A stretch of DNA of 64,000 nt from Eledone cirrhosa (taxonomy: Eukaryota). Positions 2,981-60,067 of the stretch are shown piece after piece. Made by a program: the position numbers and the translations under genes. Under the pieces are notes generated by a model. The model worked only from the letters and a program-made list of their open reading frames with translations. It was not told where the DNA came from and made no database searches. Every line of letters begins with the position of its first letter. Position 1 is the stretch's first letter. The stretch is from contig OZ024742.1 of assembly GCA_964016885.1 (NCBI GenBank), forward strand, positions 110,732,001-110,796,000. Direction: 5' to 3'.

Positions 2981-3262
2981 CATATTTTTCTTTCTCTCAA
3001 TAATGATATCTGCTACATTCTATACTCCCACAGAAAACATATATCTTCAATTTTATATCTAAACTTTCAACTAATTTAAAGAGATATATATTTTTTTCCT
3101 TTCTCCTTCGTATCGATTTTTTGTTCATTTTATTAGACTATTTTGCCTTTTACACCGAATATACTATTATACTAATACACTAATGTACTTTTAGACATTA
3201 GTGTACCCTATACAATAACGTACATTTATAGTGTGCGTTTATGTCATTGCTTATACACATAG

Positions 3263-3357
<95 letters not shown>

Positions 3358-3380
3358 TATATATAAATATATAAATATAA

Positions 3381-4059
3381 ATGGAAAAAACGAAATTTCA
3401 TTTCTCACTCATAGTACGGCTGATACTTAAATATAAGTATGTATACGTACATACATATATGTATACAGACGTACAGTAGTATGTATATACATACATACAT
3501 GCACACATATATATATGTACGTTGGGTTTACCGAACATTTATTATAATGTTCGGTTTGTTTGTAAACAAACAGCCCGAATTAAGCCGTACAGTGTTCAGC
3601 AACCATCGTTGCCCTTTTGTTCAACACTGACAAAGAAACGATGAACTAGTTTCTAGCTTATTAGCTGTCATCAGCACCGTATACCTTCCTCTCAATCGAT
3701 TGAACATTTTAAAGTATATTCTTTACTTATGCATATTAACGGCTGAGCAGCCTAATTTGCATATCGAGTGAGTTATTCGGCCGGGCGTACCGAAAACGAT
3801 AGATGGAAAAAATGAAATTTCATTTCTCACTCTTAGTTCGGCTGAAACTTAAATATGTCAGTGTTGAACAAAAGGGCAACGATGTTTGCCGGACACTGTA
3901 TGGCTTAATTCGGGCTGTTTGTTTACAAACAAACCGAACATTATAATAAATGTTCGGTAAACCCATACGTACATATATATATGTGTGCATGTATGTATGT
4001 ATACACATACTACTGTACGTCTGTATACATATATGAATATACGTATATATACTTATATT
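3381..4059 (-). mobile_element. Retrozyme-like non-coding HHR element, family R1 copy a (422-bp unit, 54-bp direct redundancy, inverted arm)
   Basis: Direct repeats 3381-3434 and 3803-3856. 3857-4059 is an inverted copy of 3430-3632. HHR at 3638-3680, no ORF, TA-rich flanks, second copy at 8562-8997. Confidence 0.8.
3638..3680 (-). ncRNA. Minimal type I hammerhead ribozyme
   Basis: ACGGTG-CTGATGA-CAGCTAATAAGCTA-GAAA-CTAG-TT-CATCGT; 6-bp stem I and self-complementary ACTAGT stem III. Confidence 0.85.
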
Positions 4060-7000
4060 CATATAAATATATATATGTGTGTATGTGAGTGTGTGTGTGT
4101 GTGTGTGTGTATTGAGAGAGTGGGTGAGAAGAAAAGAGTGAGAGAGATGGAATGAGAGAGGAAGAGAGTGAGAGATAGATAGGATGTGAGTGAATATCTG
4201 CAGTACAACGACCGGTAAGACCACAATTTGTGTAGTACTCGAAACACGGTAGAATATATGTGTGTGTGCATGTGTTTTGGTATGAGGGTGTGTTTGTACG
4301 TGTATATTTGTGTGTAGGTTTAGGTGTGTTGTTGTCAGGGAACAGTTCAATATTTTATGTTTATGTTAATTCAAATATATGCACATTTTACTACTAGAAT
4401 TTTCGATTTATTTTTCTTCATTTCATATTTCACTTAGAAAAATAACATGTATAAACATAGTTTTGTTTGCGCTAAAAATGTCTCAACAAGAATTTGTCAA
4501 TAAGCGCAAATTACAAAATTACTAAATTGCAAAATAATTTAATAAACCAAATCTTTGATAGATTATTTCGAGACTTGGTGTATTTAATTATGAAATTAAA
4601 TGAATGTAAGAATTTTAATATGGAAATCCCCATAGATAATTACAATTAAGAAAGAACAACAAACCCTCTGTATAATCTTTTAAAATACCATACGCGTAAT
4701 TGTTAGATGTTACAGAAGGTAATTTATTTACATTATATGACTTTTCTACGATGTAATTGGTATTTACATTAAATTATTTTTAAAACACACCACTCACACA
4801 CACACATACATATTCTGTTTAATGTGCGTCAATAACATCTAATAAAAGAGGGTTTTAGTATATATTAAGTTTGCCTCCGGATGAAGCTATGAATGATTTT
4901 AATATATAAATGCATAAATATAACAGGTAACATTTATTAAAAATGTATTACTATCAACATGGGAAAACAAATTAAAAATAACCACACAAATACATGTATA
5001 TAATATCAATGAGAGTAAAATGAATCTTTGAGTCGCAGAGATTGTAAGTCAGTATTGAAACATTCATCCAATCAGCACACACATATGCACATGCATGCAC
5101 ATATACGCACACATGCTTGTACACACGTATACGTACGTATTTATTCAAGATACGCATACACGCTCATACATGTGTACATGAGATAAATTTAATGTAACTA
5201 TAAATACGCGTTTTGAATTTTAAAACTCTTTGTAAAAGGTGTAAATATATTTTCCACTATCCTCTACCACACAGAAAACATGATTTCTCTTACCCGTTTC
5301 AGGTTGTATAGTCTCCTTATCATAAGATAATAACCCCTGCAGTCCTTCCCACACAGGGGAATTGAGAGTATCACTATTTATCTCAAGTAAAGAGTATCTC
5401 ATAAGAACTGATGCGGAGGTGTCCATCACTACGTCGTACAGCCTACGGAGGCTCTCCGACGTAGTGATGGGCCACCTTCATATCAATTCTCTGTTTATAT
5501 GTTGATGTAACCCGGTAAGGATTACTAAACTAAATCTTTTATGTTCATTACATCTGATGACGTCACTGATTGCCTTGTATCTGGTAGGCTCTATATCACT
5601 TATTTTTAATCTTTTTAATTCTATGAGGCACTGAAGACCACATATAAAATTCCTCGACGAGCTCTTCGTATGGAAATAATAATTATGAACAAATATATTG
5701 CCTAACTTGTTTTATTGATTATGCATGCGCACTACAAGATTATGAATAACACATTTTCAAGACATTCAAACAATAACATATCTTCTTTAACGGATTAAAT
5801 TATATTTCTAAAAATCTGCTGTGTACCTAAATACTACCTAATATACAACAGTGAACAGCGTTGCAACGCTTGAAAACTATCGCTCTGTATGTGTATGGTG
5901 TGTGTTTTAGGGTAGTGTGGCTAACGAGTTTGCATCGATTACACAGCGTGGTGTTTTGAGCGAAATCCAGGTAACATAGCCCTTAGCTGCTGAACGAATT
6001 GTAAGTTCAATTTGATAACTGGAAACAGTAAGGTCATATGTACGTAGATACATATATTTACATTTGGTCGAAAGAAAAAGAAAAAAAACTGCTTTTTCAG
6101 TGAATTTATTTGTGATATTTGTTTTGCATAATATGTCAAACATTTCCCTGTCAGACTTGCAATCAGAAAGGTATTGAAATAGGGATTGAACCGTTCAATA
6201 TATCTAACAACACAACTCTTCTCCAACTGGAATATAAAATAATTATAAACGTATTTGTTGCACTGTGTATTTCTCTTTCTAACACCCTTATTCTCTCTTT
6301 CTATATATATTTCAGTGCGTTTATGTCTTGTGTGAACATATTTACTTAGATATGCTGTTATATAATTAAAATTGTTTAAAATATAAATTTTCTAAAGCGT
6401 TTTTCAATTATTATAATACAATCATATTAAATATTACTTATCATGCAATACTCTCTCGCTCGCCTTTGAGTCAAATTCTGGGAGAAATACAGGATATAGC
6501 TTGAAAGCAACATAAATAATTGCATAGAATATGAGAAATATCACCTCATAGACACATACACAAGGTTGGGTTTATATTTAGTTAGGCCAACGAAGTTCGT
6601 TCTCTGTCATTTTAATCATCTTTTCATCACAAATATGAAGCAATAAACATAATTCCTATGATTATGTCCGCTTACTTTCCATTATTTCATCTCTTCTCTG
6701 CTATTTTTTAATACATTCTTTTGATGTTTCTTGCTCGCTTTCATTCACTAACTCAGTAGCAGTGTCTATTGGTTTCTATGTCTGTTTCTCTCTCTCCCTC
6801 ACTCTATTTTACTATCACCACCTTCCTCCTTTCATCTATTTCGCCACCTCTCTTTCTTTGAAGCAAGAACCAATCTTGTAGCAACATCGACGGAAATATA
6901 AACCCGGTCGTTGCTATCAGACTTGACTTGACATAATGAAGAACCGTTTATGACAGGGGATCAACTTGGCAATTTATTCTCGAAATAGAGATAAATGTCA

Positions 7001-7749
7001 ATGTTTAATTACTTTGTTAGACACAACAACAACATAAACAACAAACGAGATAACCAAAACATATAAAAAATGTCAATAAGTAAAAAGAAAACGAATGTAA
7101 GAAAATGTGAGTTAAGGAAAAATAGAAAATGGAAGAGAGAAATTGTGAAACTCATCATATTAATATGGAGAGAAAAAATAACTTATATTTCTTATTTCCA
7201 TCGCTGGTCGTCGATTTAAATATAATATAGCGTAAGCTGAAGATTATTTCAGAATATATATTGAAGTGGTGGCTCTAAGGAATGTGATATCCGCGAGGAA
7301 GATTTGAGGTTTTCCGTAATGACAGGTTATTATCAGAACTTCAAAGTGCTCAAGCGTAAAAAATGTTTTATATGGAAGAATTATCAGCAGTAACAAAGGA
7401 ACCATAGATAAGGTAGGGGAATGGTGAAAAAAAAAAGTATCGGAGCAGTTTGCCCAGTATATTTGTGTAAGAAAAATATAATTTTGGCAATGGAAAATAA
7501 GACAGATTTGAATAATATTTCAGAAGTTCAGACAATACGTCTGTGTTTTAAAAACATAATAGTCACAATGTTTTAATTATATATAAATAGATAATATATA
7601 CGTAAATATGAACATACACATACATACGTTAATACATACACATACTCACGTATACACACATATATATACTTATATGCATATGCACACACAGATACACAAA
7701 TATAAATATATATATATATATATATATAGGGAGAGAGAAAGAAAAAGAA

Positions 7750-7863
<114 letters not shown>

Positions 7864-7904
7864 TGAGAGAGAGAGGAAGATAAAGACACATAAGCATACA
7901 TACA

Positions 7905-8057
7905 TATGAGAATGCTGGAGGGCACAAACCGACGGAAAGTGTAGAAATGTAATACGCACTCAACTTTTGATTGATGTAAAGTCAATTAACATATGCCATA
8001 TGTAACATTATATATATATACAAGTGTACACACAAAAACACACACACGTGTATCTCA

Positions 8058-8144
<87 letters not shown>

Positions 8145-8483
8145 TTATATATATATAATTATAAAGAAAGTGCTCAAGCGCAGAAATTCTATAAAGATAG
8201 CTTGTAAAATAGGTTGAAGAGCCTTAAAAGACGGAAAAATAGTTGCCATAGGCCGCTATAGGGAATTGAAAACCCATATCTTGCTGATACCGGTATCTGG
8301 AAGATATGAGGTTCAATTCTTGATAGCGGCAGATGGCCATATCTTTCTCCGTATTTTAAGGGTCTTCACTCTACTTTATAAGCTATCTTTATAGTATTTC
8401 TGCACTTGAGCACTTTCTTTATACTTGTATATGTTATATATGTTACATATGGCATATGTTATTTGACTTTACATCAATCAAAA
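7905..8483. mobile_element. Old fold-back insertion (arms 7965-8291 / 8292-8483) with probable left tail; left arm interrupted by a microsatellite block
   Basis: Diverged inverted repeat centred on GATACCGGTATC. 8025-8160 is inserted in the left arm. No convincing HHR found. Confidence 0.65.
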
Positions 8484-8536
8484 AATATATATATTCTCAA
8501 CGCTCCAAAAGCTTAAAATTCGGCTTCGTACATTGT

Positions 8537-8561
<25 letters not shown>

Positions 8562-8567
<6 letters not shown>

Positions 8568-8997
8568 GGAAAAAATTTCATTTCTCACTCTTAGTACGGC
8601 TGTTACTTAAATATAAGTATGTATACGTACATACATATATCTATACAGACGTACAGTAGTATGTATATATATATACATACATGCACACATATATATATAT
8701 ACGTATAGATTCACCGGATATTTATTATAATGTTCGGTGTGTTTGTAAACAAACATCCCGAATTAAGCCGTACAGTGTCTAGCAACCATCGTTGCTCATT
8801 TGTTCAACACTGACAAAGGAACGCTGTACTAGTTTGAAGCTTATTAGCTATCGTCAGCAACGTATACCTTCCTGCCAGATGATTGAACGTCTGAAAGTAT
8901 ATACTTTCCTTATGCATATTAACGGCTGAGCAGCCTAATTTGCATATCGAGTGAGTTAATTGGCCGGGCGCACCGAAAACGATAAACGTAAAAAATT
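8562..8997 (-). mobile_element. Retrozyme-like family R1 copy b (420-bp unit, ~16-bp redundancy)
   Basis: Homologous to 3381-3856. Starts and ends with ATAAACG(G/T)AAAAAATT. HHR at 8821-8863 (ACGTTG-CTGACGA...CAAA-CTAG-TA-CAGCGT, G12 mutated). Confidence 0.8.
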
Positions 8998-9019
8998 GTT
9001 AAAAAATTGCTAATATTAT

Positions 9020-9165
9020 CTATCGGTCGCAACTCCAGGTAGAAGGAGCAACGTGAAATAAAGTGTCTTGCTCAAGGACATAACGCATCGCCTGGTCCAG
9101 CAATCGAACTCAAAACCTCACGATTGCGAATCCAATTCTTTAACCACTCAGCCACACGCCTTCAC
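9020..9165 (-). mobile_element. tRNA-derived SINE (Meta/CORE-like core)
   Basis: Minus strand A box TGGCTGAGTGG, B box GTTCGATT, then GTCCTTGAGCAAGACACTT. Confidence 0.75.
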
Positions 9166-9461: not shown

Positions 9462-9465
<4 letters not shown>

Positions 9466-10439
9466 AAAATAGGGAGAACAAGACGATTATTAGGAAGAAA
9501 AAGATATATATTTTTTTCTTTTTATTTTTTTCTCTTTTCTCTGGGTTGGAAAATGATTAAAACAAAATATTTTACTTTGTGTGAAGTGTTGAGGTATTAG
9601 TTAATATATTTATTAATTAACAATGGTATTTATTTATATATGCCATAAATATATAAATAAATAAATAAATGCCACTGTTAATTAATAAATAAATTAACTA
9701 ATACCTCAACACTTCACACAAAGTAAAATATTTTGTTTTAAACATTTTCTAACCCAGAAAAAAGAGAAAAAATTAAAAAGGAAAAAAAAAGAATTTTTCT
9801 TCCTCATCATCGTCTTATTGTCCCTATTTTCATATATATATATATACACCCTACCTAATCTTTTTTCTTAAATAAATTAACTATCATCCAGCATGAATTA
9901 CCCCCCCCCCTGCATATTAACTCTCTAAAAAGGGAAATCATATCAAACCCCAGTCCACCATTTGCCTCCATCATGGATCAACTAAGCACTCTTGCTATAT
10001 TAACACATTTTGATCTATGCCTGTAAATAACATTATTTTTTCTTTCACATTGACTTATTATGCTCCATATTACGCACCTTTCTTTCTTTCTTCTCTTTTC
10101 TTTTCCCTTCATAAACCATGTTTGTAAATAACATTATTCTTTCTGCACCATTTCGTTAACATGTCCAACACCACCATTCTACACCAATACATATTATTAT
10201 CGTTTGAAATGCTGAAACCGGTAATAGACAATTCATAAAAATGCTGAAACCGGTAATAGACAATTATTATATATATAAATAAATGCCATTGTTAATTAAT
10301 AAATAAATCAACTAATACCTTAACACTTCATACAAAGTAAAATATTTCGTTTTAATCATTTTCTAACCCAGAAAAAAAGAGAAATAAATAAAAAAGGAAA
10401 AAAAAATGTTTTTCTTCCTAATAATCGTCTTCTCCATGT

Positions 10440-10495: not shown

Positions 10496-10498
<3 letters not shown>

Positions 10499-11676
10499 GA
10501 TAAATCTACCAAGAGTTTACGGTAGTGTCCAATCCGTATGAAGAACTCAATGTAATCCGGATATCATGGAAAGAAGAGATGCATTCAAAAATCACTTTCG
10601 GTGAAAGATAAACGGAATACAGAGTCAAGATAAAGTATTAAAAAAATAATGAATAAAACAATGAAACAGTTCCTTATATTAAACAAAAAAAGTTCATTAT
10701 TTAACGATCGTTTCTAGGACATATATGTGTTAGAATTGGCATGCATATTCAACAGATCTATGTACAAAATTATACAAAATTATACAAACTATCAAATATA
10801 ATATACATACCAACACATACATATGCCGTCTTCAGAAATAATGAAATATATTTATTGATAATAACAACAATTCAAAATTACAGGTCTGTTTGGGAACAGA
10901 GTTCAAATTGACCAATGAAATACACAAAAATATAACAAGAAAATACAGTTAGGTGTGTGTATATATGTAAGTAACTTCGCTCACAGATATGCATAAAAAT
11001 ATATGTTCACATGCATACGCATGCCGAAAAAATGTATGTAAATACAAAAATTCAGGGCTAATGTCTCTGTATGTTTATAATCTACAGATAAAATACACAT
11101 ACGTATATAAACATATATACATTCATATATACACACATATACATACATTCAGTGTGAATGTATGTATATGTGTGTATATATGAATGTATATATGTTTATA
11201 TACGTATGTGTATTTTATCTGTAGATTATAAACATACAGAGACATTAGCCCTGAATTTTTGTATTTACATACATTTTTTCGGCATGCGTATGCATGTGAA
11301 CATATATTTTTATGCATATCTGTGAGCGAAGTTACTTACATATATACACACACCTAACTGTATTTTCTTGATATATTTTTGTGTATTTCATTGGTCAATT
11401 TGAACTCTGTTCCCAAACAGACCTGTAATTTTGAATTGTTGTTATTATCAATAAATATATTTCATTATTTCTGAAGACGGCATATGTATGTGTTGGTATG
11501 TATATTATATTTGATAGTTTGTATAATTTTGTATAATTTTGTACATAGATCTGTTGAATATGCATGCCAATTCTTACACATATATGTCCTAGAAACGATC
11601 GTTAAATAATGAACTTTTTTTGTTTAATATAAGGAACTGTTTCATTGTTTTATTCATTATTTTTTTAATACTTTAT
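10496..11676. mobile_element. Near-perfect palindrome of PLE family A pLTR (522-bp arms, 3-nt loop, 134-nt left tail)
   Basis: Arms 10630-11151 / 11155-11676. Homologous to the 3' ends of the PLEs at 25052-27964 and 60155-62280. (TA)n on both sides. Confidence 0.92.
11461..11613 (+). ncRNA. Type I hammerhead ribozyme with ~115-nt extended stem II
   Basis: TTCATTATTT-CTGAAGA-[long hairpin]-GAAA-C-GATC-G-TT-AAATAATGAA; perfect 10-bp stem I. Mirror copy at 10693-10845. Confidence 0.85.
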
Positions 11677-12184: not shown

Positions 12185-12653
12185 CAGTTATGATATGTTT
12201 GTTACCCCGACGGCTGAGCTCCGGCCATTCCGACAGCTAGATCCGAACTAACACAGCAGTACTATGACGGCGGGGACCTAGCTGAACTTATCAAGGGGTA
12301 CAGTCCATATATGAACATGCAGTCAAAACAAAAAAGGAAGAAGTATCAAATCAAACAGCGTTAAGAGAGAACATTTTTACAAATATCACTGATGGGGTTA
12401 TGAAGGAATTTAACCATGTACATGATCCCCAAATCATTGACCCCTCTCCGTGACAGACCAGAAAAACAACACATTTTTAGAATTGTTTCATTTGATACTT
12501 CTGCCTTTTTTTGTGATTGCATGCCCATATATGGACTGTACCTCTTGATAAGTTCAGCTAGGTCCCTGCCGTCCTAATACTGCTGAGCTAGTTCGGATCT
12601 AGCTGTCGAAACGGCCTGAGCTCAGCCGTCGGAGTCCTGAATCTTTTCCTATT
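12185..12653. mobile_element. Diverged inverted-repeat pLTR element carrying variant HHRs
   Basis: Arms ~12203-12358 / ~12483-12636 around a spacer; related to 814-1016. Confidence 0.75.
12539..12636 (+). ncRNA. Hammerhead ribozyme, U3:A8 core variant
   Basis: TACCTC-TTGATAA-GTTCAGCTAG...CTAGCTGTC-GAAA-CGG..CCG-TC. The mirror copy (12203-12300, minus) keeps a perfect stem I TACCCC/GGGGTA. Confidence 0.7.
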
Positions 12654-13113: not shown

Positions 13114-14912
<1,799 letters not shown>

Positions 14913-14925: not shown

Positions 14926-16777
<1,852 letters not shown>

Positions 16778-18926: not shown

Positions 18927-19199
18927 GTTATATTTGGGGAGGTTATATTGTTATAATATTGTCAAAAATATATAATAAAACACACTCACTGTTTGGTTGG
19001 GGTCGCTTCTCGCTTCCATATATTTTATATCCCTATAGTTAATTTAGCTGGCAATCAATGACCAACAGTTAAACATATAGGTATAAAAATATATATAGTC
19101 TCTCAGAGTTCTTTCATCACACACTTATCATCAGTGATATTATGTTTCTCCACACACGATTTCATATCAAAAGCCTTGCAAAACAAATTCATCGCCCCT
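18922..19199 (-). mobile_element. Nematis-like PLE pLTR (minus) fused to a plus-strand tail fragment
   Basis: Homologous to 54359-54620; decayed HHR at 19103-19137; 19150-19191 resembles the family tail at 22137-22177. Confidence 0.7.
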
Positions 19200-19213
19200 T
19201 ATATATATATATA

Positions 19214-20250
19214 AGGCTTATGGAATCTCCAAGAGGATAGTGGACCTGATATCACTGCTCTACACCAACACCAAAGCCCAAGTCATTACACCTGATGGGA
19301 TGACAGAGTTCTTTGAGATACTGGCTCGAGTGCTCCAGGGAGATACATTGGCTCCCTACCTTTTTGTCATCGTAGTGGACTATTGTATGCGCCTTGCACT
19401 GGAGAAACACCAGGACTCTGGCTTTACTGTAGCACCGGCTCAGAGCAGGAGAGTTGGGGCGAAAAAGGTATCGGATGCTGAATTTGCCGACGACATAGTT
19501 TTGGTGACAAATACAGTGAAGGAGGCAGAGGATTTGATGCGGGAGGTTGAGACTGTCTCGATGAGTGTGGGGCTGAGAATGAATGAGACTAAAACAAAAT
19601 ATCTGGTAGAGAATGTTGAGAAGCCAGAGGGGATCACTAATGTAGGCGGGAAGCCGCTGGAATTGGTTGAGGACTTCCTGTATTTGGGAGCAAAGATTGG
19701 GAATACGGAAGATGGTGTGGTTGAGAGGAAGAGCAAGGCCTGGGCGGCGTGTCACAGCTTGAAATCGGTGTGGAAGTCGGACCTTCGTAGAGACCTGAAA
19801 ATCCGCCTCTTCATTGCTGTAGTGGAGTCTGTGCTGCTGTATGGGTCTGAGACTTGGACACTGACCAAGAGACTCACTCATATGGTGGATGGGTGCTACA
19901 CGAGAATGCTGAGGATGGCTCTGAACATTAATCAGTATACACTGAGGATGAAAAACTCAGAGCTGTATGGGAGCATCCCAAAAGTCAGCTCAAAAGTGAC
20001 ACAGAGGAGACTGAGGTTGGCTGGACATGCTCACCGACATACAGAGTTGACATTGCACTCAGTGCTCCTTTGGGAGCCCCTACATGGACACACTAGAAGA
20101 GGAAGACCAAGGTTAACATATGTTGATGCCCTAAGGACAGACACTGGTCTGTTGGAGATGCAGGATATGGCAGCGATAATGAGGGACAGAGACCGCTGGA
20201 GAGAACTCGTCCATGGATCTCGGGAATTTTACCCGCCTTAGATAGATAGA
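19214..20250 (+). mobile_element. 5'-truncated RTE-clade LINE; open RT/C-terminal frame 19240-20241; (TAGA)n tail
   Basis: LQGDTLAPYLFVIVVD, EFADDIVL, FLYLG, VESVLLYGSETW, RLRLAGH, RGRP motifs; inserted in (TA)n. Confidence 0.92.
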
Positions 20251-21132: not shown

Positions 21133-22180
21133 TTGTTATACTTTGGGAGGGTCATGTTGCCAATAAGAAACACACGCACCAGTTGCTTTCACTTCAGTTT
21201 ATGATATATTTATAAATTTACAAATTTATAAATTTATAAATATAAACTCAATATTAAGATAGTAGAAAGACCAGGTACCTCCGTAAAAACACTTATTAGC
21301 AAGGCATACCCTTTTCAAAGACCCTCATGTATAGACAAGAAATGTATAACCTGTAAAATAAGCCCCCATATTAACTGTAAAACTAGAAATGTAGTGTATA
21401 GCATAAGATGTACTGAAGGACAATGTAGAGACAAAAATATAGTGTACATAGGTGAGACAGCTCGTAGTATAGGGGAACGGATAAATGAACACTGGCGAGA
21501 CCTTCAAGATAATAAAGAATCATCTGTACTCTACCAACATGCTAAGATATAACACAAGGGTAAATTAGAGAACAGAAATAAAAATAGAAACTACACACAG
21601 AAAAGATGCAATGTTTAGACAAATTACAGAGGCAATAAACATAAAAGAATTACAACCAAAATTAAATAGAAAATATGAGTGGAACAGCAACATCACAACT
21701 TACAATTAAGGACAAAATGAAAACACACACACACATAGAACAAACAACCAACCAGTAACATGTAAATAAACAAATAAATAAACAAATAGATAAATGAACA
21801 GAAACACACACAGACACCTGGATGTGGCGCATGCGCAGACTGAGCACACAACACACACACAGAAACAAAATGGCGTAGGACAGAACAAAGGAGAGGCACA
21901 GAAACAAAGAAAGGAATCCCCACTCACTGAAGAGGTCACAGAGTGTGTGACGAAAGGACTATGACTATATATAAACAACTATCTGGTTGCGGAACCAACC
22001 AACCAACCAACCAGAAATTTATATATTTATAAATTTGTAAATTTATAAATATATAATAAACTGAAGTGAAAGCAACTTGTGCGTGTGTTTCTTATTGGCA
22101 ACATGACCCTCCCAAAGTATAACAATATCGGTTTCAACACACGATTTCAGATAAAGAATCTTGCTAAACAAATTCAGAAA

Positions 22181-25051: not shown

Positions 25052-27961
25052 ATAAATTAATAAAAACAATGAATAAAAACAAAGAAACAGTTCCTTATAT
25101 TAAAAATTCACCATTTTACGATCGTTTCTAGGATATATATGTGTGTGTTGGTATATATATCATATAGATCTATGTAAAAATTTTACAAACTATCAGAGGG
25201 AACAAAGCCTTGATATTTGCCAAAAATAGATGAAACTTAACTATGGATGACAAACACTACTGGAATTTCAGAAGGAATACTGGACCAGAAATACATATAG
25301 TAATCTATTCGACATTACTATGGGCTCTAGTGATTCTGCCCAAATTACCGATCTTGTGGGCCTCTTTCTTCTATTTAACATAAATGCTTCTTTTCCCCCA
25401 CCTTAAAGGTGGTTTATATCGTGATGACTGTCTTCTTCTTTCCACTAACGTTAGCCTATCAGAAATTGAAAAAAATAAAAAACTTTTTAGAACTTTCCTC
25501 AAAGACTATTACAGTCTCACTATTACATTTGAAAACACCAGTAAAGTAGTTAATTTCCTTGATATAACTTTAGACTTATCTACGGGTATCTACCAACCTT
25601 ACCATAAACCTAACCAAAACTTACATTACATACACTCACAATCCAATCACCCTATATCTATCCTTGAAACCCTAGCATATAATATCTCACCTCAATATTT
25701 CTAACCTTTCATCTAACCAGGATGTATTCTATAAAAATGCGCCCTTTTATAACGAAGCTTTAGCTAGAAGCGGCCACAAAAACAAATTAATCTATATACC
25801 TTGCACCAATAATACTTCAAACATACAACCCAATATTACCAACAAACACCAAATGAAAAATACACACGTAAATGCCACTCACACTATACCCCAAAATACC
25901 AACTTAAAACTTAATTTCTCTACTTCTTCTCACATACAATATAATAACTTTCAAAAAACCATTCATCCTAATACTCCAATATATGTTAATAACATTACTA
26001 ACAAAATTCCTAATAATCAGACTAAAACACCTAAATCAGTTAATCTAACTAAACCTATATATAATAAATTCACTAATACTAACTCTCTTAGTAAACATCA
26101 GGATACATCGTATAAAAATAAAAAACAACATCGAAACCGTAATAGACGATTTACTTGGTATAATGCTCCATTTAATCTACAAATTAAAGATAATATCCCT
26201 AAAATGTTTTTTACTATCCTAGAGAAAAACTTCCCGCCAAACCATAAATACCATCAAATTTTAAATAGATCAACGGTCAAATTCTCCTACTCCACTACCA
26301 AAAATATACAACAAAATATCATGCCTACAATGCATATAAATGTAAAAGAACCATGAATATACCACCAACACATCAAACTAACCATAATACTAAAATAAAC
26401 CGCAGCAAACCACCATCTCCTTCACATACAACAAGTCAAGTAAATTCCACACCTAATTTGACTAACTCCCCTGATATAATATTCACGAATGGTTGTAACT
26501 GTAGAAACAAAGCAAATTGCCCATTAAAAGGAAATTACATTATTAATAACATAGTATATAAATGTAAAATTAGCACTAAGGACTCAACTTATTCATATAT
26601 AGGAGCTACTTCTAACCAATTTAAAGTAAGATTTAATACCCACAAACACTGTTTTTAAAATGCCGCATTAGCTAATACAACATCCTTGACTGAAATAATT
26701 AATAATTATAGAAAAAAGAATATCGATTATAACATGACCTGGAGTGTGCTCAAAAGGGCCACCCCTTATCAAAATAACAGATATGAGTGTAGATTATGTT
26801 CCCAGGAACTTTTTGAAATAATGAAATCTAAGGATATCCTATTAAATAAGCGACAAGAATTAATTATATCGTGCAATCATAGAATCAGAAGAAATTTCAC
26901 ATATTATAAACCTAATTAATATACACTTATATTTTACAAATTATTATAATTATTTTTTTTTTATTTAGTTAACCTATAATTAGTATTTTACTACTGAGAA
27001 CGTCATAATTTTATTAACGTTTTACAGCTATCTTTTCCTAAAATTAATACCTATAAGTATACATATAAACTATTTTAATTTCCTGTTATGAATCTAAATT
27101 CCTTGTAGTCTATATAAGTTTGTTATTTCTCACTAATACATTTACCCCCCCCCCCCAAATTTTTTTCCTTCGTTTTTAACAACATTCTTTAATAACATCT
27201 AACTCTTATTTATCACATCTATATGAATTAATATAAATTTATCCCTATAAGTATACCTATTAATTAAATTAATTTAATTTCTTTTTATAGATCTAAATTC
27301 CTTATGTTTTAAATAAGATTGGTATTTCTCACTAACACATTTATCCTAAAATGTTATTCTCCTTCGAATTTAACATTAGCATTATTCTTTAATAACATCA
27401 AATTTTCGTGTACCTTTCACCGGCTTGACCTCTTTTCATCCCCAAAGTAATCTTTTCATTCAAAGTATTCTTTCCATTCAAAACTGAAGTCTGCATTCCT
27501 CTACCCCTAAATTAAATTTCTACTACTACTATTCTATCAACTTGACCACTTACTACTTTTCTATTGGTCAATTCAAAACCTGTTTCCAAGCAGACCTATT
27601 ATATTAAATCATTGTTGGTCTTTTTCAATAAACAAATATCATTATTTCTTAAGACAGCATATATATGTGTAGGTATGTATATTCCCTCTGATAGTGTGTA
27701 AAATGTTAACATAGATCTATATGATATACATACCAACACACACATATATATCCTAGAAACGATCGTAAAATGATGAATTTTTTAATATAAGGAACTGTTT
27801 CTTTGTTTTTATTCATTGTTTTTTAAAATTTATCTTGACTCTGTTTTCCTGTGATTTTCATCGAAAAAATGTTTGAATACATCTTCTCTTTTCATGATAT
27901 TTGGATTACATTGAGTTCTTCATACGGATTGGACACTACCGTATATTTTGGTAGATTTGTC

Positions 27962-29355: not shown

Positions 29356-30239
29356 CGAGGTGTGTCAGAAAAGTTTCAGGACTGATGTCACAAAAGATTT
29401 ATTTCAAACCCAAACTTCACACTGAGAGTTTTCTCCTTCAAAGTAATCCCCCTAGAATATGTAACTGTAATCTTAGCTCTCTGCAGCGATCAAACTTTTT
29501 TCTTCATAATTTTATATACATGTCCCTTGTTTCAGGTCGTCAAACAATGAGCACAGAGCAACGAACAAACTTGAATTTTCTGCTACGGTTGGGGAAAACT
29601 CCGCCAGAAGCACTGGGATTGCTACAGCAAGTGTATCGAGATGAGACGATGTCACGCTCCGGTGTTTTTGAGTTGTGTAAGATGACCCCAGGAGCGGAAG
29701 GCCCTCAACAACCAGGACTGAGGTTAACGTTGAGCGCGTCAGGCAGATGGTGCATAGCGATCGTCGGCTGACTGTTCTACTGATGGCAAATGAGCTGCAC
29801 ATGAATCGGGACAGCGTCTGGAAGATTCTCACTGAAGATTTGGACATGCGGAAAGTCTGCGCGAAGATGGTGCCAAAACTGCTGAACGATGACCAGAAGG
29901 GTCGACGCATGAAAGTATGCCAGGGCATCCTAGAGCGTCTTGAAACCGAACCAGACTTGCTAGGGACAGTCATCACCGGTGATGAGTCATGGATCTTCAA
30001 GTACGACCCAGAAGAGACCCATTTTGAAGACGTGGACGACATCAAAAAGGCCGTGACGACGGAACTGCGAAGGATCCCGGAAGAATCCTTCCAGGAGTAC
30101 ATGCAAGCGTGGCAGAAAAGGATGGAAAAGTGCATTAGACTCCAGGGGGATTATTTGAAGGAGAAAACTCTTGTCTGAAGTTTGTGTTTGAAATAAATCT
30201 TTTGTGACATCAGTCCTGGAACTTTCTTGACACACTTCT
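29356..30239 (+). mobile_element. Internally deleted mariner (Tc1/mariner) DNA transposon
   Basis: ~65-bp TIRs (CGAGGTGTGTCAGAAAAGTTTCAGGACTGATGTCACAAAAG...), TA on both sides. HTH region, KMVPKLL and ITGDESW..YDPE are fused directly to the C-terminal FEDVDDIKKAV segment. Confidence 0.93.
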
Positions 30240-35151: not shown

Positions 35152-35524
35152 ACTGCCCAGTAATTGTAAGTATACTAATGAAAACCATCAAATATATTAC
35201 CGAGGATGGGAGCTAATCTTGTTTCTATTTTATATAAATACTGAAAATGTCATTAACATCAAATAGTTATGTGATTTGTATTAAGGTTCCGAGTCTCTGT
35301 CTTTTGTCACTCGAAAATTAGTTAATGCAAATTGTTGAATATTGTTTACTTTTTGCGACCAAACATTGATACCAAATTTTGTAAATATATTCTCCCTTTA
35401 TTTATGTTTTTTTGTTTTGCCAAAACGTTGATTTGTTTACTTAAAAAAGATATGAATTGAGATGATGTTTCTCTTTTTAATTATGTTTTCAAATATGCAT
35501 TGATGTCAAGTCCGCCATGGCTTG

Positions 35525-36260
35525 ATTGAAAATCAGTATTGCGAAAACTGAGACACTCGTTCTCTCAAGGAGGCCTGTGCAATGCACTCTACATGTGAAT
35601 GGAGTTCCACTGAAGCAGGTTGAGAAGTTCAAGTATCTCGGAGCCGTGTTCAAGAGTGATGGAAGGAAGCTGAATTAAGTAAAATAATTGCAAAAGCTTG
35701 AGTGGGGTAGTAATATGCCAGGTTCAGTATTTGGTACGCAGAAGAAATGAAGTAGGTGTAATAGCCAAACTCAACTATCTTCAATTCAGTATTCGTGCCA
35801 ATATTTGCCTTGGGTAATGGACGAAAGAATAGGATCGTGAATACAAGCAGCCGAAATGGGGTTCCGTTACTCGATAGACTAGCTCGGAGATCATAGAGTC
35901 CCTCCAGGTTGAGCTGCTATGTCTCCAAATTGAAAGATCACTGCTCCGATACTATGGGCATGTGGTTAGAATGTCTCAGTAAAGAATCGCTGGACATATT
36001 TTATGGGCAAAACGAACCGATAGGAGACACAGGAATATACCTCGAGCAAGATGGTAGGATAACATACATGAGCTTGGCTGGTCTCGCTTGGGGATTCAAC
36101 CAGATCAGTTGGAGACGGTTGCTTCTGAGAAGACCCGCTGGAAGAAGTGTTGGTGGACTCTGCCCTAACGACCGTCTCAGGAATAAGTGGGCGAAGAAGA
36201 AGAAGAAGAAGAAGAAGAAGAAGAAGAAGAAGAAGAAGAAGAAGAAGAAGAAGAAGAAGA
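35525..36260 (+). mobile_element. RTE-clade LINE 3' fragment with (GAA)n tail
   Basis: LKQVEKFKYLG and LRYYGHVVRM motifs; homologous to 15900-16530. Confidence 0.85.
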
Positions 36261-37529
36261 AATATAGAGACTGAGAATTTTAAAATAAAAAAATAAAAAA
36301 TGGAAGCGCAGTGCTACATATAAAACATTCACGGGGGAATTTTGATCAGTGAAATTTAACATTGATTTGAATAGGTTTCACATTTGACCGCAGTGCTAAG
36401 TACTTCAAAAGTTACATGGAAGTAAACGTGGATTTAAATACCTATCCATTGTTGTGGTGAAGCTTTGGCTTTTTGCCTAGTCATTATCGTCATAGCATGC
36501 GATAAAACTTGTGTTCCTTTGATAAAGAAAATAGGTGAATACTCTAAATGGATGGCTAACACTAGAGATCCGAATAAAAGGTTGCTTTCATCAGAAATCC
36601 AGGTTTTCAAAAGCATGATTCTACAATTGGATTCTTCTGATAATTCATAAAGCAGAGTGGTGATTGGCTTACAGGTGACTGAAAAGATCACTCATTTATC
36701 TGCAGATCAAATTATCAATCTTAAGCTAGAGTAGAGCTGAGATTTCTGTTTTTCTACGAATCGGGATAGTTTGAAAGAAAACTAGAAGTTAGATTCACTG
36801 AATGACCTGTGAAATGATAAAGTTCAAAACAACGCAAGGCTGTCCATCTTATATACATAATAAAAGACAATTTAATTTTGATTCGTAACTGTGCTGAATA
36901 AAATAAAAGACATCAAGGAAAACTTCATGCCATGGCGGACATATTTTCCTAGGCTGATACGTCAAAGCTCATTTGATTGAAAAATCCACACTGCCACACC
37001 GAGAAAGATGTTAGATATTCGCCGAAAATCTTCCAATCCTGGAGCGTGAAATCAACCTTGGTATTAATAACCGACCGAGGTGACTGTACATCTTAAAACA
37101 AAAAAATCTAAATTAAAAAAGAAAAATACATTAAAGAATATATTAAAACATAAATAAGTTTCGCAGCATAATTCGTTTCTTACCACCACTTCACTGATGA
37201 TGACATACATCTGACCGCGCTCCTAAATCCCAGACTCCTGTAATATAATTTTCATTACCGTCCCATCATCACTCCAAACACTTCTCCTTGGGGGCGACAC
37301 GGACAGGTTGGAAAACGTAGAAGTAGATGTATACATAAATGTCAAACTAACTCCACCTTTAAATTGTCTACAGACAAAATGTGTACACAGAAAGGATATT
37401 ATTCCATTGAGCTTGGTTATTAATTGTTATTACTCGATTCACATTAGGCCAGATCTTGAAGAAAAGAGATGTGATATATGATATTTCAGTCGTGACCATC
37501 ACATTATTTAAGACAGTATATCTGAGCAA

Positions 37530-39304: not shown

Positions 39305-39374
39305 CGTGTTTTAGTGAAGATGAGGTTGGAGAGATGCAGGGAGAGTTGGGTGCAAATATATATATATATATATA

Positions 39375-40605
39375 TACAAAGTGTTTAAACGATCAAAGTT
39401 TAGTTTAGAATATTTATTTGCTGACAATTGTTTCTTTCATAAGGAAGTCTGGATTCTTCGGAACATAAGGAATGTCGAAACATGTAACTAAAATCCTAGT
39501 CATTTAGAACATTTAAGGTACATAATTGTTATTAGTGTCAAAGGCATCATGTGGAGAGTCAGGGGTTAAAAAGATGTTCTGCTTGAAAGAACACAATTAC
39601 AGGCAGCACTGGTTGGAAGTGTAATAGGTGAAAGTAAAAAGCTCAAGCTAAAAAATCACAAGCAAAAAAAAACACAGGCAAAAATTTATAAGCAAGGAAA
39701 ATTGGTGTACAATGCGGGGGTCAATACAGTCAATAATGCATGTATGAGGAAAGAGTTATAATAAACATATTTTGTCTGGGGTGTTAAAGCATGTTACACT
39801 TATATAAATGTTTAAGACAGTGTGTAATTTGTTAGAGAGGCATGTGGTGATAATTTAGGTATCTGTTGACTCAAAATAATCCCATGGTTAATAGCTGTGA
39901 GTAAGAAACAACACATAGACATAAATACGAACTACAACACAGAAACACTTAAATGAAAATCACATACCAAACTATATCAGGTGCTTTGCATTACACCTTA
40001 CATAACAAATACCTACATTATCACCTCTCTAACACCTCTCTAACAAATTGCACACTATCTTAAACATTTATAACAATTATAACATGCCTTAACACCCCAC
40101 ACAAACTATATTTATTTCAACTGCATTATGACTCTTTCCTCACACATGCCTTATTGACTGTATTGACTCCTGCATTGTACACCAATTTTCCTTGCTTATA
40201 ACTTTTTCGCCTGTGTTTTTTTGCTTGTGCTATTTTTGCCTGTGATTTTTACTTATACCTATTACACTTCCAACCTGTGATGCCTGTAATTGTATTCTTT
40301 CAAGCAGAACATCTTTTTAACTTTTGACTCTCCACATGATGCCTTTGACACTAATAACAATTATGTACCCTAAATGTTCTAAATGACTAGGATTTTAGTT
40401 ACATGTTTCGACATCCCTTATGTTCCGAAGAATCCAGACTTCCCTCTGAAAGAAACAATTGTAAGCAAATAAATGTTCTAAACTAAAATATGATCGTTTT
40501 AACACTTTGTATCTCGGCTCTGTAAAACAATTGAAAATTTGCATTGAGCCTCTTGTCATAGCGGTAACCGGCTAGTACTTAGTATACCCAACATATCTAT
40601 AGTTA
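39375..40605. mobile_element. Fold-back pLTR insertion (~500-bp diverged arms, ~140-bp spacer, right tail)
   Basis: 39375-~39865 inverted against ~40010-40511; tail 40512-~40605; HHR-like motif in both arms; (TA)n flanks. Confidence 0.85.
40421..40467 (+). ncRNA. Hammerhead-like motif with CCGAAGA core
   Basis: TGTT-CCGAAGA-ATCCAG..CTGAAA-GAAA-C-AATT-G-TA-AGCA; mirror copy 39419-39465 has GTC at the cleavage site. Confidence 0.55.
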
Positions 40606-48823: not shown

Positions 48824-48825
<2 letters not shown>

Positions 48826-49305
48826 CGATATTAAACAAATGGAAATTACATTTATAAAACCATATTTATTTCATTATATATATTTCAGGGATATCATATT
48901 AAAATATGGTATGGCCTCTTCAGACAAAATACAATATATAGACAGTTTTATAAATAAATTTGACATACCTTAGAGTTTACAACTTCCATTTAAAAAGTTG
49001 TTACGGTAGTGAAAATGTTAAGGACGGTTATGTTCACTACCGTAACAACTTTTTAAATGGAAGTTGTAAACTCTAAGGTATGTCAAATTTATTTATAAAA
49101 CTGTCTATATATTGTATTTTGTCTGAAGAGGGCATACCATATTTTAATATCATATCACTGAAATATATATAATGAAATAAATATGGTTTTATAAATGTAA
49201 TTTCCATTTGTTTAATATCGTAAAATACTCCAAAACTTGTTGAGTGCTTTTATATCAGTTATAAAATATTTACTCGTTGTAGCCCAACATTTTAAATAAA
49301 ACTTT

Positions 49306-50858: not shown

Positions 50859-51603
50859 ATAATAAAGTATGAATTCCTACGTGTAAAAAATACATATAGG
50901 GAAAAAAGTATTATCCACCCATATGCCAATGTGGTTCTATGGCGGGTTAATAAATTAACAAGCCGGAACATATAAAATCGATGTCTAGCAAATAGAGAAA
51001 AAGTTTTAAAATAAATAAAAAAAAATTCGCTGTACTTACTACATGTGCCTTTACCGCGGTTTCATGCTCCAGAATAAACGGAAAATCCAAGCGGATTTCC
51101 ATTGAGAAGGGACCAATCTTGAGTAGGCTCTATATGCTAGACCTCGATTTCATATGTTCTGGCTTGTTAATTTATTAACCCGCCATAGAACCACATTGGC
51201 ATACGGTTGGATAATACTTGTTTCCCTATATGTATTTTTTACATGTAGGAATTCATACTTTATTATTATCGATCTCCCCCTATAAAATTTTGGCTGTTTG
51301 GACTGATGCTATTTCTAGTGGCAGGACATTGACCTGCCCACCCTGCCTTTTGTCTTTGCACACGGCACCAGACAGAATTATTTCTTTCATCATCCGCTCT
51401 CATTTGGTAATGGTTTTGTATGGCGGCAATTTTATATTCTCCGAGGGAGAAGAGCCTTCTGAAGATTGGTCCCTTCTCAATGGAAATCCGCTTGGATTTT
51501 CCGTTTATTCTGGAGCATGAAACCGCGGTAAAGGCACATATAGTAAGTACAGCGAATTTTTTTTAATTTATTTAAAAACTTTTTCTCTATTTGCTAGACC
51601 TCG

Positions 51604-51610
<7 letters not shown>
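50859..51610 (+). mobile_element. Retrozyme-like non-coding HHR element, family R3 (457-bp unit, ~26-bp redundancy, inverted arm spanning the unit junction)
   Basis: CTCTATWTGCTAGACCTCGATTT at 51128 and 51585; inverted arm 50859-51128; HHR 51454-51535; no real ORF; (TA)n flanks. Confidence 0.85.
51454..51535 (+). ncRNA. Type I hammerhead ribozyme (canonical core)
   Basis: GCCTT-CTGAAGA-[branched stem II]-GAAA-C-CGCG-G-TA-AAGGC; perfect 5-bp stem I. Confidence 0.88.
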
Positions 51611-51659
<49 letters not shown>

Positions 51660-52021: not shown

Positions 52022-52150
52022 CTTATCAAATTTAATTATCCCAAATATTTTCGGGCTTAAAATTCCATTATCAAGTTCAATAAGTCCGGAGAAAACTGGT
52101 TGGAGAACCAAGGTCAGCACTCTGTGCAGAGCAGAGTGTATGCAATAAGT

Positions 52151-52434
52151 GGTGGTGTTACATAGGAGATTTATTGCTCAATGCTGGTTACAAATGTTTC
52201 TCAAGTAGCGGGCACGTGATCTGCATTGGCACCTCAGTGTCTGGTCTGGGTGCCAACCCAGATCACGAATAAACTGCTTGAGAAACATTTGTAACCAGGA
52301 TTGAACAATATATCTATGTAACACCTCCAATTTGATCTTATACGTATATATATTTTCTTTTAATATATTTATACTCTGCTATATATTGAGTACCTTACTT
52401 AATGTGGTTACCCCCGATTCAACTCGGAATAACT

Positions 52435-52436: not shown

Positions 52437-54343
<1,907 letters not shown>

Positions 54344-54358: not shown

Positions 54359-55415
54359 TATTGTTATACTTGGGGTGGGTCATATTTGTGTAATGTTGCC
54401 AGAATTAATAACAGAACACACTCACTGTTTGGTTGGTTTTCGCTTTTCGCTTCTGTGTCTTTTATATTGGTAATCTAATTTATTCGGTCCTCAATGTTGC
54501 CATTGACTGACCAACGGTCAAAAATATACAGATACAATATAGACACAAACACATATATATAGTTTATAAAAGTTCTTTCGTTGCACATCTGCAACTTCAT
54601 CAGTGGTGCTATTGTTTCCTCCCGTTACATTGTATGTCTACGCCATCTTTATTTAGTCTGTTTATATATTTATTTATTTATTTGTTTGTTTGTTTATTTC
54701 ATCTTGTCTTCTTTGCGCATGCGTTTGCGTGTGTGTATAGTGTTTTGTTTGATGTGTGTTCGTGATAGGGTGACTGTGTATTGGTTAATGTATTCTATGT
54801 TTACTAGTGTGTGTTTATATGTATTTGTTCTTATTGTGCTTGTATATGTATTTATTTATTTATTTATCTATTTATTTATTTATTTATACTTCTCTTAGGT
54901 CAGTGTTGTTTGTTTGGGTGTTGTTGTTATTCCATTCATTCTTTCTGTTTAGTCTTGGCCTTCTAAGTTCTATTTCACTGGCCTCTCTGATTTGCCTATC
55001 TGCTGGGTCATTTCTATGTTTAGATATTATTCTAATTTCTATGTTGTCTATGTTACAGTCGTGTTGTTGTCTGGCATGTTCGTATAGTACTGACCCGTTT
55101 TTTCGTCCTTTTAGTTCCCCCCAGTGTTGGTCTATCCTTTCACCTATGCTACGAGCTGCCTCGCCTATGTATATTGTTGTCATGTTTCTGCAAGTACACT
55201 CTGTACATCTTATGCTATATACTACGTTTCTAGTTTTACAGTTTATCCGGGGATTTACCTTACATATGGTACATTTACTATTAGTACAGTGGGATTTCTT
55301 AAAAGGGTAGGTTTTGCTGATAATGGATTTTATGGTGGTTCCTGGCTTTGTACCACCCTGATCAGCAAAACTTACCCTTTTAAGAAAACCCACTGTACTA
55401 ATAGGAAATGTATCA
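54359..55415 (-). mobile_element. Nematis-like PLE 3' fragment (subfamily B') with snap-back duplication at its 5' junction
   Basis: ORF remnant 54884-~55350 (CTNSKCTIC..NVVYSIRC..YIGEAARS..RQIREA..LNRKNEW); HHR ~54566-54607; 55361-55415 inverts 55267-55321. Confidence 0.9.
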
Positions 55416-55432
55416 TGGTATGAGTTTATTCT

Positions 55433-56402
55433 AGAATAAACTCATGGTATGATAGCAATAAATACCAGAGTGTAATGTTCATCGATACAACCCCTAGTGG
55501 TGAATTAGCTTACAAATTTAGAAGGGCCCTAGATAAACATAAACTCAATATTAAGATAGTAGAAAGACCAGGTACCTCCATAGAAACACTTATTAGCAAG
55601 ACATACCCTTTTCAAAGACCTCCCTGTATAGATAAGAAATGTATAATCTGTAAATTAAGCCCCCATATTAACTGTAAAACTAGAAATGTAGTATATAGCA
55701 TAAGATGTACTGAAGGACAATGTAGAGATAAAAATATAGTGTACATAGGTGAGACAGCTCGTAGTATAGGGGAACGGATAATGAACACTGGCGAGAGCTT
55801 CAAGATAGTAAAGAATCATCTGTACTCTACCAACATGCTAAAATAGAACATAAGAGTAAATTAGAGAACATAGAAATAAAAATAGAATCTACACACAGAA
55901 AAGACGCAATGTTTAGACAAATCACAGAGGCAATAAACATAAATGAATTACAACCACAATTAAATAGAAAACATGAGTGGAACAGCAACATCACAACTTA
56001 CAATTAAGGGCAAAATGAAAACACACACGCACATAGAACAAACAAACAACCAGTAACATGTAAATAAACAAATAAATAAACGAATATAAACACACACAGA
56101 CACCCGGATGTAACACATGCGCAAACTAGGCACACAACACAGACACACAAACAAGATGGCGTAGGACAGAACAAAGGAGAGGCACAAAAAAACAAAGAAA
56201 AGAATCCCCAGTCACTGAAGATGTCACACAATGTGTGACGAAAGAACTTTGACAATATATAAACAACCATCTGGTTGTGGAACCAACCAACCGGAAATTT
56301 ATAAATTCCTAAATTTATAAATTTATTATAATAAATTGAAGTGAAAGCAACTGGTGCGTGTGTTTCTTATTGGCAACATGACCCTCCCAAAGTATAACAA
56401 TA
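55433..56402 (+). mobile_element. Nematis-like PLE 3' fragment (family B)
   Basis: SWYDSNKYQSVMFIDTTPSGELA..KIVERPG..YIGETARS; HHR 56211-56253; near-identical to 21243-22127. Confidence 0.9.
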
Positions 56403-56544: not shown

Positions 56545-56958
56545 TATTGGTAAATGGAATACAAAATGCTGACAAATTGTTCACAGTGAAAGATAGTTTA
56601 ATTAAGAATAAATGAGAATTAGTAATTGTATTGGTTAGTAATCAGTTTTGGTTTTAAGTTTTACCGGTTGCGCATTTCTAAATGCTTTTCAAAAATAATG
56701 TTGAGATAGAGCGTCCGTGATGTTTGCTCTGATCAGAGATCAGAGTAAACATCACGGACGCTCTTATTATTTTTGAAAAACATTTAGAAATGCGCAACCG
56801 GTAAAACTTAAAACCAAAACTGATTACTGACCAATACAATTACTAATTCTCATTTATTCTTAATTAAACTATCTTTCACTGTGAACAATTTGTCAGCATT
56901 TTCTATTCCATTTACCAATATATAATAACTTGTGCGTTACACCTCTATTCTTTTAACT
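56545..56958. mobile_element. Fold-back of the Neptune-like pLTR (~185-bp arms, 38-nt right tail)
   Basis: Arms 56545-56734 / 56738-56920; homologous to 56972-57172 and 59835-60072. Confidence 0.9.
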
Positions 56959-57476: not shown

Positions 57477-57537
<61 letters not shown>

Positions 57538-57704
57538 TAGTAGTAGTAAGGTGTTCGATGCTGCGACAATGGCCAGCAGCGATGTGTGTCAAATGGCTAT
57601 TAAGATAAGTGTGTGTGAGTGTGTGTGTGTGAGTGTGTGTGTGTGTATAGCAGAGTCATTCGAAGGTCAAAAGATATTTTTCAGCTTTTGTCTTATACGG
57701 AGAA

Positions 57705-57761
<57 letters not shown>

Positions 57762-59910: not shown

Positions 59911-60067
59911 GCTTAAAAACTTAAAACCACAACTGAATACTAACCCATACAATCACTAATACTCTTTTATTCCTAATTAAACCATTTTTCAACTGTGAAC
60001 AATTTGTCAGCATTTTCTATTCCGTTTACCAATATATAATAACTTGTGTGTTACACCTCTATTCTTT

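Follow-up and report, generated by a model that had tools for sequence, protein, structure and literature searches.

Why does one arm of a two-armed insertion run through a hammerhead ribozyme, while its partner stops just short of the predicted cleavage site? This question is raised by copy a of the repeat R1, located at 3381-4059 of a 64-kb window from Eledone cirrhosa (the window being the whole stretch of DNA analysed). The first-pass annotation of this locus had proposed that one cDNA came from a circular or uncleaved template and that the other ran off the 5' end of a self-cleaved linear RNA. Here we revisit this proposal using the geometry of the two R1 copies, the predicted fold of the ribozyme, the arm ends of other R1 copies found in reads and contigs, and the other insertions in the window. 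We favour, with a probability of about 0.4, the explanation that reverse transcription was arrested at the folded ribozyme.

The R1 unit and its two copies

The window is AT-rich (32% GC), dense in microsatellites and holds many remnants of mobile elements. R1 is a non-coding unit of 423 nt with a GC content of 36%, which is predicted to fold extensively; in the open reading frame list of the window it has no coding frame, only repeat-driven frames over its right end. We call R1 high-copy based on the 7095, 4705, 10 and 37961 records obtained from runs X1, X4, X8 and X13, respectively; exact-motif scans of metagenome contigs, genome contigs and viral contigs returned no further copies. The window itself contains two copies, a and b, both of which sit in (TA)n repeats (3259..3380 for copy a, no strand), and any target-site duplication is masked by this repeat. 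Both copies also contain the octamer ATGCAAAT on the minus strand (3755-3762 and 8938-8945), approximately 70 nt upstream of stem I, a motif with six occurrences across the whole window that may be present by chance. Newt satellite 2 has an snRNA-type promoter.

The long arm of copy a (3381..3856, minus strand) runs in sense orientation from a 5' end at 3856 to a 3' end at 3381 and crosses the hammerhead. The direct BLAST match between 3381-3434 and 3803-3856 (92.6%) sets the unit at 423 nt and the long arm at 476/423 or 1.125 units, in agreement with the earlier estimate of about 1.13. The terminal redundancy, a partial tandem or pseudo-LTR at 3804..3856 (minus strand, 53 nt), is made up of a second tail copy plus 5 nt and has four mismatches to the first. 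The 49-nt 'tail' itself (3381..3429, minus strand) is found in the long arm only, as the inverted arm stops at the equivalent of 3430; by analogy with an element studied in vitro, it may represent the stretch bounded by two reverse-transcription start sites (PMC11167929, accessible parts). At 3856..3857 the arms meet head-to-head (5'-to-5') with 1 nt of microhomology. The inverted, 5'-truncated arm follows at 3857..4059 on the plus strand as a sense copy running from 3632 to 3430 (BLAST match of 3430-3632 to 4059-3856, 95.6% over 204 nt, E 8e-91), and it lacks both the tail and the hammerhead core. Since the single T at 3856 fits both arms, the inverted arm starts at the equivalent of 3632 or 3631, which is 11-12 nt 3' of the predicted cut and matches the distance of about 11 nt given before.

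There are eight differences between the two arms in 203 alignment columns, and the inverted arm agrees with the long arm at 13 of the 14 sites that separate the long arm from copy b; judged by these sites, the arms of copy a derive from one subfamily. An assembly artefact was rejected in view of the same 8/203 differences and of similar joints in three other runs. Copy b (8562..8997, minus strand) consists of one arm only, 1.04 units long and inserted in (TA)n, with a decayed hammerhead whose predicted cut lies after 8827. It is 89.9% identical to copy a over 424 nt; the 3' ends of the two copies agree within about 3 nt, a value blurred by the TA target, and its redundancy is approximately 15 nt as compared with 53 nt in copy a, so that the common 3' end and the shorter redundancy claimed for copy b both stand.

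The hammerhead and its predicted fold

A motif scan detects one type I hammerhead in copy a, with a decayed core at 3638..3680 on the minus strand, and places the predicted cut between 3644 and 3643, where it had been annotated. The core consists of CUGAUGA (3674-3668) and GAAA (3653-3650), with a stem I of 6 bp, a stem II of 4 bp and a stem III of 2 bp with a palindromic loop. This agrees with the canonical type I geometry as described in the accessible parts of PMC4209133 (6-bp helix I, 4-bp helix II, 1-2 bp helix III with a palindromic loop, and the core boxes). Decay is seen in both window copies: in copy a the triplet is GUU and stem II position 11.1 is occupied by A, and in copy b CAAA replaces GAAA as the one core mismatch. 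Neither retains the G10.1-C11.1 pair, which is C/A in copy a and U/U in copy b. In the majority of the family the triplet is GUA and the core is intact, the plus-strand change A>T at 3644 being present in 9859/10565 and 7456/7876 X13 reads. No Rfam hammerhead model matched at gathering level, nor was one found among the 112 matches at E up to 10 within 3300-9100; matches to microRNA families in this region scored below gathering and were rejected as microsatellite hairpins.

According to the folding prediction, stem I would extend into a rod at 3617..3706 (minus strand), in which U3637 is bulged, a 4-bp helix pairs 3636-3633 with 3684-3687, and the next helix starts at 3632. In copy b, the helix starting at 3632 is predicted to have 6 bp, with pairing probabilities of 0.70-1.0; more pairs are predicted further along the rod, up to about 3618-3622. 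Core-open constrained folds of both window copies gave a 6-bp helix at 3643-3638, the bulged U3637, the 4-bp helix at 3636-3633 and outer helices from 3632 onwards. On this predicted structure, the 11-nt offset of the inverted arm from the cut would correspond to the 3' strand of the first two stem I helices.

Arm ends in other R1 copies

Reads and contigs mapped on 3381-3856 gave 103 joints, and the counts that follow refer to the 15 listed, 11 of which join opposite strands. The lower ends of these 11 are 3565, 3632, 3632, 3637, 3640, 3659, 3673, 3685, 3685, 3685 and 3686: four in 3632-3643, none in 3641-3645, six in 3644-3687 and one below. The zone 3632-3687, which flanks the cut on either side, thus contains ten of the 11 listed, and the six at 3659-3686 lie inside the ribozyme and upstream of the cut, which means that they read through it. 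Four of the eight opposite-strand joints listed from the raw reads of run X13 end at 3632, 3632, 3637 and 3640, for which uniform nulls give P values of 0.0006, 0.003 and 0.056 with detectable ranges of 210, 135 and 60 nt, respectively. When the three 3685 ends are left out, all five remaining X13 joints listed fall in the 56-nt zone (P 0.001-0.012, uniform nulls). Two of the eight X13 joints listed fall within 1 nt of 3632 (P ~0.005-0.013 over a range of 135-210 nt) and, among the joints listed together with copy a, the end at 3632 occurs with three partners, 3837, 3842 and 3856, the last being that of copy a. In the contig joints listed (X1 and X4, n=3), none of the six arm ends is in 3632-3643. 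A single arm would end within 12 nt 3' of the cut with a chance of ~3-5% under a uniform null and copy a was picked after the fact; its end alone therefore proves little.

The inner arm ends of the R1 family are often in or beside the ribozyme, though not at the cut itself, as seen in five junctions at 3632-3640 including that of copy a, and the position of the inverted arm end is probably not due to chance. The peak of truncation points that had been foreseen near the cleavage site is hence present in part: half of the X13 joints listed end at 3632-3640, however 3641-3645 is empty and six of the 11 ends are upstream.

Several properties of the data bear on these counts. Reads of run X13 begin at AATT sites and, like copy a, have a head-to-head arrangement, as judged from the side lengths, which in five of the eight X13 joints listed are exactly those expected for a start at 3816 or 3754; consequently only joints within a restricted fragment size are visible, and the best-supported X13 rows may favour short fragments and hence ends near 3620-3640. 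Reads also align best over the ribozyme, because it is the best-conserved part. The 3685 ends may be alignment clips, given that 7303 reads leave the reference there, and the mismatch of copy a at 3641 could have clipped an end at 3643 to give the one at 3640. Joints at 3632 may share ancestry, unaligned letters between joint sides may go unreported (overlap values and reconstruction are discordant in four of the 11 joints listed), and as 3381-3522 was left out as a repeat in read mapping, a partner arm may be of 0.1 or 1.1 units. Partner ends cluster as well, at 3837-3846; this cluster was discounted, since the reads start at 3816 and the stretch is ambiguous with the left-out tail copy. Contig depth is not copy number, and the depth profile was rejected as a truncation histogram; the X13 depth was rejected too, as it follows the AATT sites 3578, 3754 and 3816 and a divergent R1 subfamily. 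This subfamily aligns in the ribozyme region 3615-3685 only, where 9665 reads have a loose end at 3615 and 7303 reads at 3685. Run X13 further contains an internal-deletion form of R1, in which 3588 follows immediately on the tail plus 9 nt (57 reads).

Other insertions in the window

A relaxed scan gave 19 hammerhead-like rows in the window, where the length of stem I varies between families from 3 to 10 bp. In the eight two-armed insertions with a recognisable ribozyme, 15 of the 16 arms pass their own cut, by 80-1441 nt, and the sole arm that stays short of it is the inverted arm of R1; this count is biased toward read-through, as it leaves out two-armed insertions without a recognisable ribozyme (for example 9465-9830 and 56548-56958). 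An arm stopping at the cut is therefore not a general rule. Three of the 15 read-through arms, both of 62409-62963 and the left one of 50861-51612, end in or right beside the 5' strand of stem I. The window also has four arms that extend beyond their own start, at 1.04, 1.06, 1.13 and 1.24 units.

Five two-armed insertions are near-symmetric palindromes (10496-11674, 62409-62963, 48824-49222, 56548-56958 and 9465-9830), whose arms end at about the same template position. These ends are 450/449, 142/142 and 148/149 nt upstream of the cut in the first three, respectively, and at the equivalents of 59832/59834 in 56548-56958. This suggests one shared RNA end or a snap-back, unlike two independent random truncations. 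In 13519-14909, the tail-less arm ends ~9-12 nt into the tail end of the previous unit.

In a 5'-truncated PLE (Penelope-like element) at 56975-60072, the inverted pLTR arm and its partner share 98.5% identity and one of the two carries a 41-nt tail; this insertion represents a young copy of the autonomous type. Its pLTR contains no hammerhead by motif scan. The 519-aa frame at 58167-59726 on the minus strand matches Pfam GIY-YIG with an E of 7e-7 (above the cut-off) and RVT_1 with 8e-7 (just below), and its order of RT followed by a C-terminal GIY-YIG is that of PLEs. A second non-coding hammerhead family (10835/11471, 27648 and 62614/62624, with fragments at 25056-25189 and 60155-60557) has a type I ribozyme with a 10-bp stem I, a stem II region of 101-116 nt and a 6-nt palindromic stem III, and a tail of 136 nt. 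More hammerhead elements are located at 1159-2945, 13519-14909, 39374-40512, 50861-51612 and 54189-54298, each with a distinct palindromic stem III. A weak GIY-YIG match below the cut-off (E 4e-4) lies at 1431-1832. Related PLE-like endonuclease remnants with inverted arms occupy 21134-22124 and 54918-56399, and the frame at 55424-55846 had no Pfam match. Also present are a LINE-like RT frame (19138-20241; RVT_1 E 2e-11, DUF6451 weak), two related LINE-like 3' fragments (15877-16591 and 35501-36261), a mariner-like remnant whose sole match is a weak HTH_32 (29681-30178), and hairpin or inverted-repeat elements with no recognised ribozyme (811-930, 12204-12635, 7965-8483, 52150-52329 and 5405-5480).

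Origin of the two arms

By analogy with the PAc system, both strands of the AT-rich target would be nicked and each would prime a cDNA, one starting at the tail end (3381) and the other approximately 49 nt further in (3430); both outer ends would then be start sites and both inner ends stops. Synthesis of the first cDNA would have passed through a ribozyme that was uncut or re-ligated and ended shortly beyond one complete unit. That of the second would have halted within the extended stem I at the junction 3632, below the 4-bp helix delimiting the canonical hammerhead fold, and the two cDNA 3' ends would finally have been joined through 1 nt of microhomology. In such a process the folded ribozyme acts as a barrier to reverse transcription, with a hot zone at ~3632-3687, and cleavage would be unnecessary for the end to form.

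The arrest of reverse transcription is supported by the ten of 11 opposite-strand joints listed that end in this zone with none at 3641-3645, by the five of five X13 joints listed that stay in it once the 3685 ends are dropped, and by the recurrence of 3632 with three partners. The ends 3632 and 3637 moreover coincide, respectively, with the helix junction of stem I and with its bulge in the constrained folds of both window copies, and hammerheads with a short helix III are described as cleaving poorly as monomers (PMC4209133, accessible parts). However, the predicted rod extends to ~3618, which makes 3632 one internal junction and not the foot of the structure, almost any nearby position is close to some helix end, and the ribozyme region gains no folding stability over shuffled sequences (z +0.24 to -1.0). 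The joints are 15 of 103, with the AATT-start, size and alignment biases, the possible shared ancestry at 3632 and the possibly unreported letters between joint sides noted above, and the other window families, with 15 of 16 arms reading through, show no excess of ends at the ribozyme. It is possible, though rather unlikely, that the second template was instead a self-cleaved RNA with its 5' end at 3643, from which 3-11 nt were lost through trimming of the RNA to the stable helix starting at 3632, through the RT falling off a nicked stem I, or through trimming of the cDNA end during end joining. Four of the eight X13 joints listed do end 3-11 nt 3' of the cut, as predicted beforehand, the 3640 end may be a clipped 3643, and the family majority has the GUA triplet and an intact core. 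In addition, the most stable outer helix predicted for copy b begins at 3632, and animal retrozymes are reported to yield self-cleaved linear and circular monomers (PMC7229834, accessible parts). Yet none of the 11 ends listed is at 3641-3645 and six are upstream of the cut, and three ends at one base 11 nt away are unlike random trimming. For PAc, the accessible parts of PMC11167929 report no RNA-seq reads starting or ending at the cut site and, in vitro, uncleaved RNA as the dominant substrate with dead mutants inserting normally. By analogy, these results lean against a need for cleavage, yet they concern another element. Arrest and a self-cleaved end would both make the ribozyme responsible for the position of the inverted arm end.

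The arm may alternatively have undergone ordinary random 5' truncation, with the nearness of copy a due to chance and the read cluster due to restriction and size selection, alignment bias and shared junction ancestry. Truncation of both arms at the 5' side is the norm in PLEs, as described in the accessible parts of PMC8557442, 15 of 16 arms in the window extend past their cuts (by 80-1441 nt), the cluster reaches only P ~0.056 for the X13 joints listed with a 60-nt detectable range, and the six arm ends of the contig joints listed from X1 and X4 are all outside 3632-3643. We nevertheless consider this unlikely, as 3632 recurs with three partners, two of eight listed X13 ends fall within 1 nt of it (P ~0.005-0.013), and X13 read support is alike for 163-nt and 216-nt fragments. 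Finally, the first cDNA might have primed itself, in which case the inner end of the inverted arm would be a priming site and not a stop. Self-priming is one proposal for how head-to-head repeats of PLEs arise (PMC3846280), R2 forms snap-back junctions (PMC11331408; both in their accessible parts), the window has five near-symmetric palindromes, and the arms of copy a are of one subfamily at 13 of 14 sites. For copy a such an origin is quite improbable, since the junction offers only 1 nt of complementarity, outer ends are fixed in multi-copy families, and both tail boundaries are RT start sites in PAc (PMC11167929, accessible parts).

The long arm crosses the cut site, and it follows, as read from the sequence, that its template was uncut or re-ligated at the ribozyme. 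The original inference of a circular or uncleaved template is therefore retained for this arm, whereas its other half, if taken as plain run-off from a cleaved end, is at odds with the 11 joints listed, none of which ends at 3641-3645. A circular template for copies of more than one unit was proposed in 2014 (PMC4209133, accessible parts), and we give a circle and a linear multimer even odds: a circle is suited because four arms pass their own start by little, and a length-decaying truncation on a linear multimer fits as well. Twin priming on one 1.6-unit RNA was rejected, as it fits copy a but not the other insertions. A more far-reaching idea, which we regard as doubtful, is that each two-armed R1 insertion records two states of one ribozyme RNA. 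The first would be a ligated circle, copied for one full turn and left shortly beyond its start (1.04-1.24 units), the second a self-cleaved form, stem-held or trimmed, with a discrete 5' end at 3632. If true, the genomic junctions would show directly, in vivo, that PLE-driven retrotransposition is shaped by cleavage and ligation at the hammerhead, a role that went unseen in vitro with PAc (PMC11167929, accessible parts).

What the hammerhead does in the mobility of PLEs and retrozymes has been addressed by the circular-template proposal of 2014 (PMC4209133) and by the report of 2024 that cleavage is dispensable in vitro (PMC11167929; both in their accessible parts). Since run-off, structural arrest and chance would each give their own histogram of arm ends, a high-copy R1 with ends piling up at the ribozyme allows this question to be approached with nothing more than a genome assembly.

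Comparison with known systems

R1 is very probably a non-autonomous, hammerhead-bearing retroelement, a retrozyme-like unit mobilised in trans by a Penelope-like RT/GIY-YIG protein. The observations behind the PLE assignment are the layout, the ribozyme anatomy, the copy number, the TA target and the presence in the window of an autonomous-type PLE frame of the same layout. R1 has the pseudo-LTR partial tandem, the adjacent inverted 5'-truncated copy at its 5' end, the one-end tail and the AT-rich target; it does not have the RT plus GIY-YIG frame of an autonomous PLE, and such a frame is found at 58167-59726. Within the window, R1 and the PLE remnants have no match outside microsatellites. 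R1 is a new family with a layout that was already known: the partial tandem, adjacent inverted 5'-truncated copy, one-end tail and microsatellite bias are standard for PLEs (PMC8557442, PMC3846280), and type I hammerheads, dual and on opposite strands 100-700 bp apart, are described in PLE repeats (PMC4209133), each as given in the accessible parts of these papers. Likewise, the PLE protein studied in PMC11167929 cuts and extends both target strands in vitro and starts reverse transcription at two sites bounding the tail, according to the part accessible. In the openly accessible literature, from which most subscription papers are absent, we found no report of inner arm ends clustering at the ribozyme, and this clustering may be a new point.

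Among the known systems, the endonuclease-bearing PLEs (Penelope/Poseidon, Neptune and Naiad; PMC8557442, PMC3846280, PMC11167929, accessible parts) share with R1 the layout, the target and a type I hammerhead in the repeat. R1 differs from them by having no reading frame and by a tail of 49 nt in place of their 30-40 bp. In R2 elements with a 5' HDV-like ribozyme (PMC11331408, accessible parts), the ribozyme is 3' of the cut and the end tracks the cut position, unlike R1, in which the ends either miss the cut by 3-11 nt on its 3' side or lie upstream. Copy a resembles L1 twin priming in that the inner end of the long arm (3434 equivalent) abuts the outer end of the inverted arm (3430) with a 5-nt overlap; however, this abutment is absent elsewhere in the window, with an overlap of 74 nt in 13519-14909 and complete overlap in the symmetric palindromes.

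The animal non-LTR retrozymes (PMC7229834; bioRxiv 10.64898/2026.07.22.740005) are, in the accessible parts of these accounts, like R1 in their short low-GC unit, canonical type I geometry, structured RNA and proposed dependence on PLEs, and an axolotl retrozyme family likewise has a U-U mismatch at the base of stem II. The window copies of R1 are dispersed 1.04- and 1.13-mers with one ribozyme, whereas animal retrozymes form tandem arrays with two or more; the R1 records do cross the unit junction, and among those listed none spans two ribozymes. Inverted arms, as present in R1, have no mention in the accessible text of PMC7229834. Animal retrozymes have been argued to be non-autonomous PLE derivatives (bioRxiv 10.64898/2026.07.22.740005, accessible part). 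R1, which combines a retrozyme-type unit with the full insertion signature of a PLE, supports the idea that animal retrozymes are non-autonomous passengers of PLEs.
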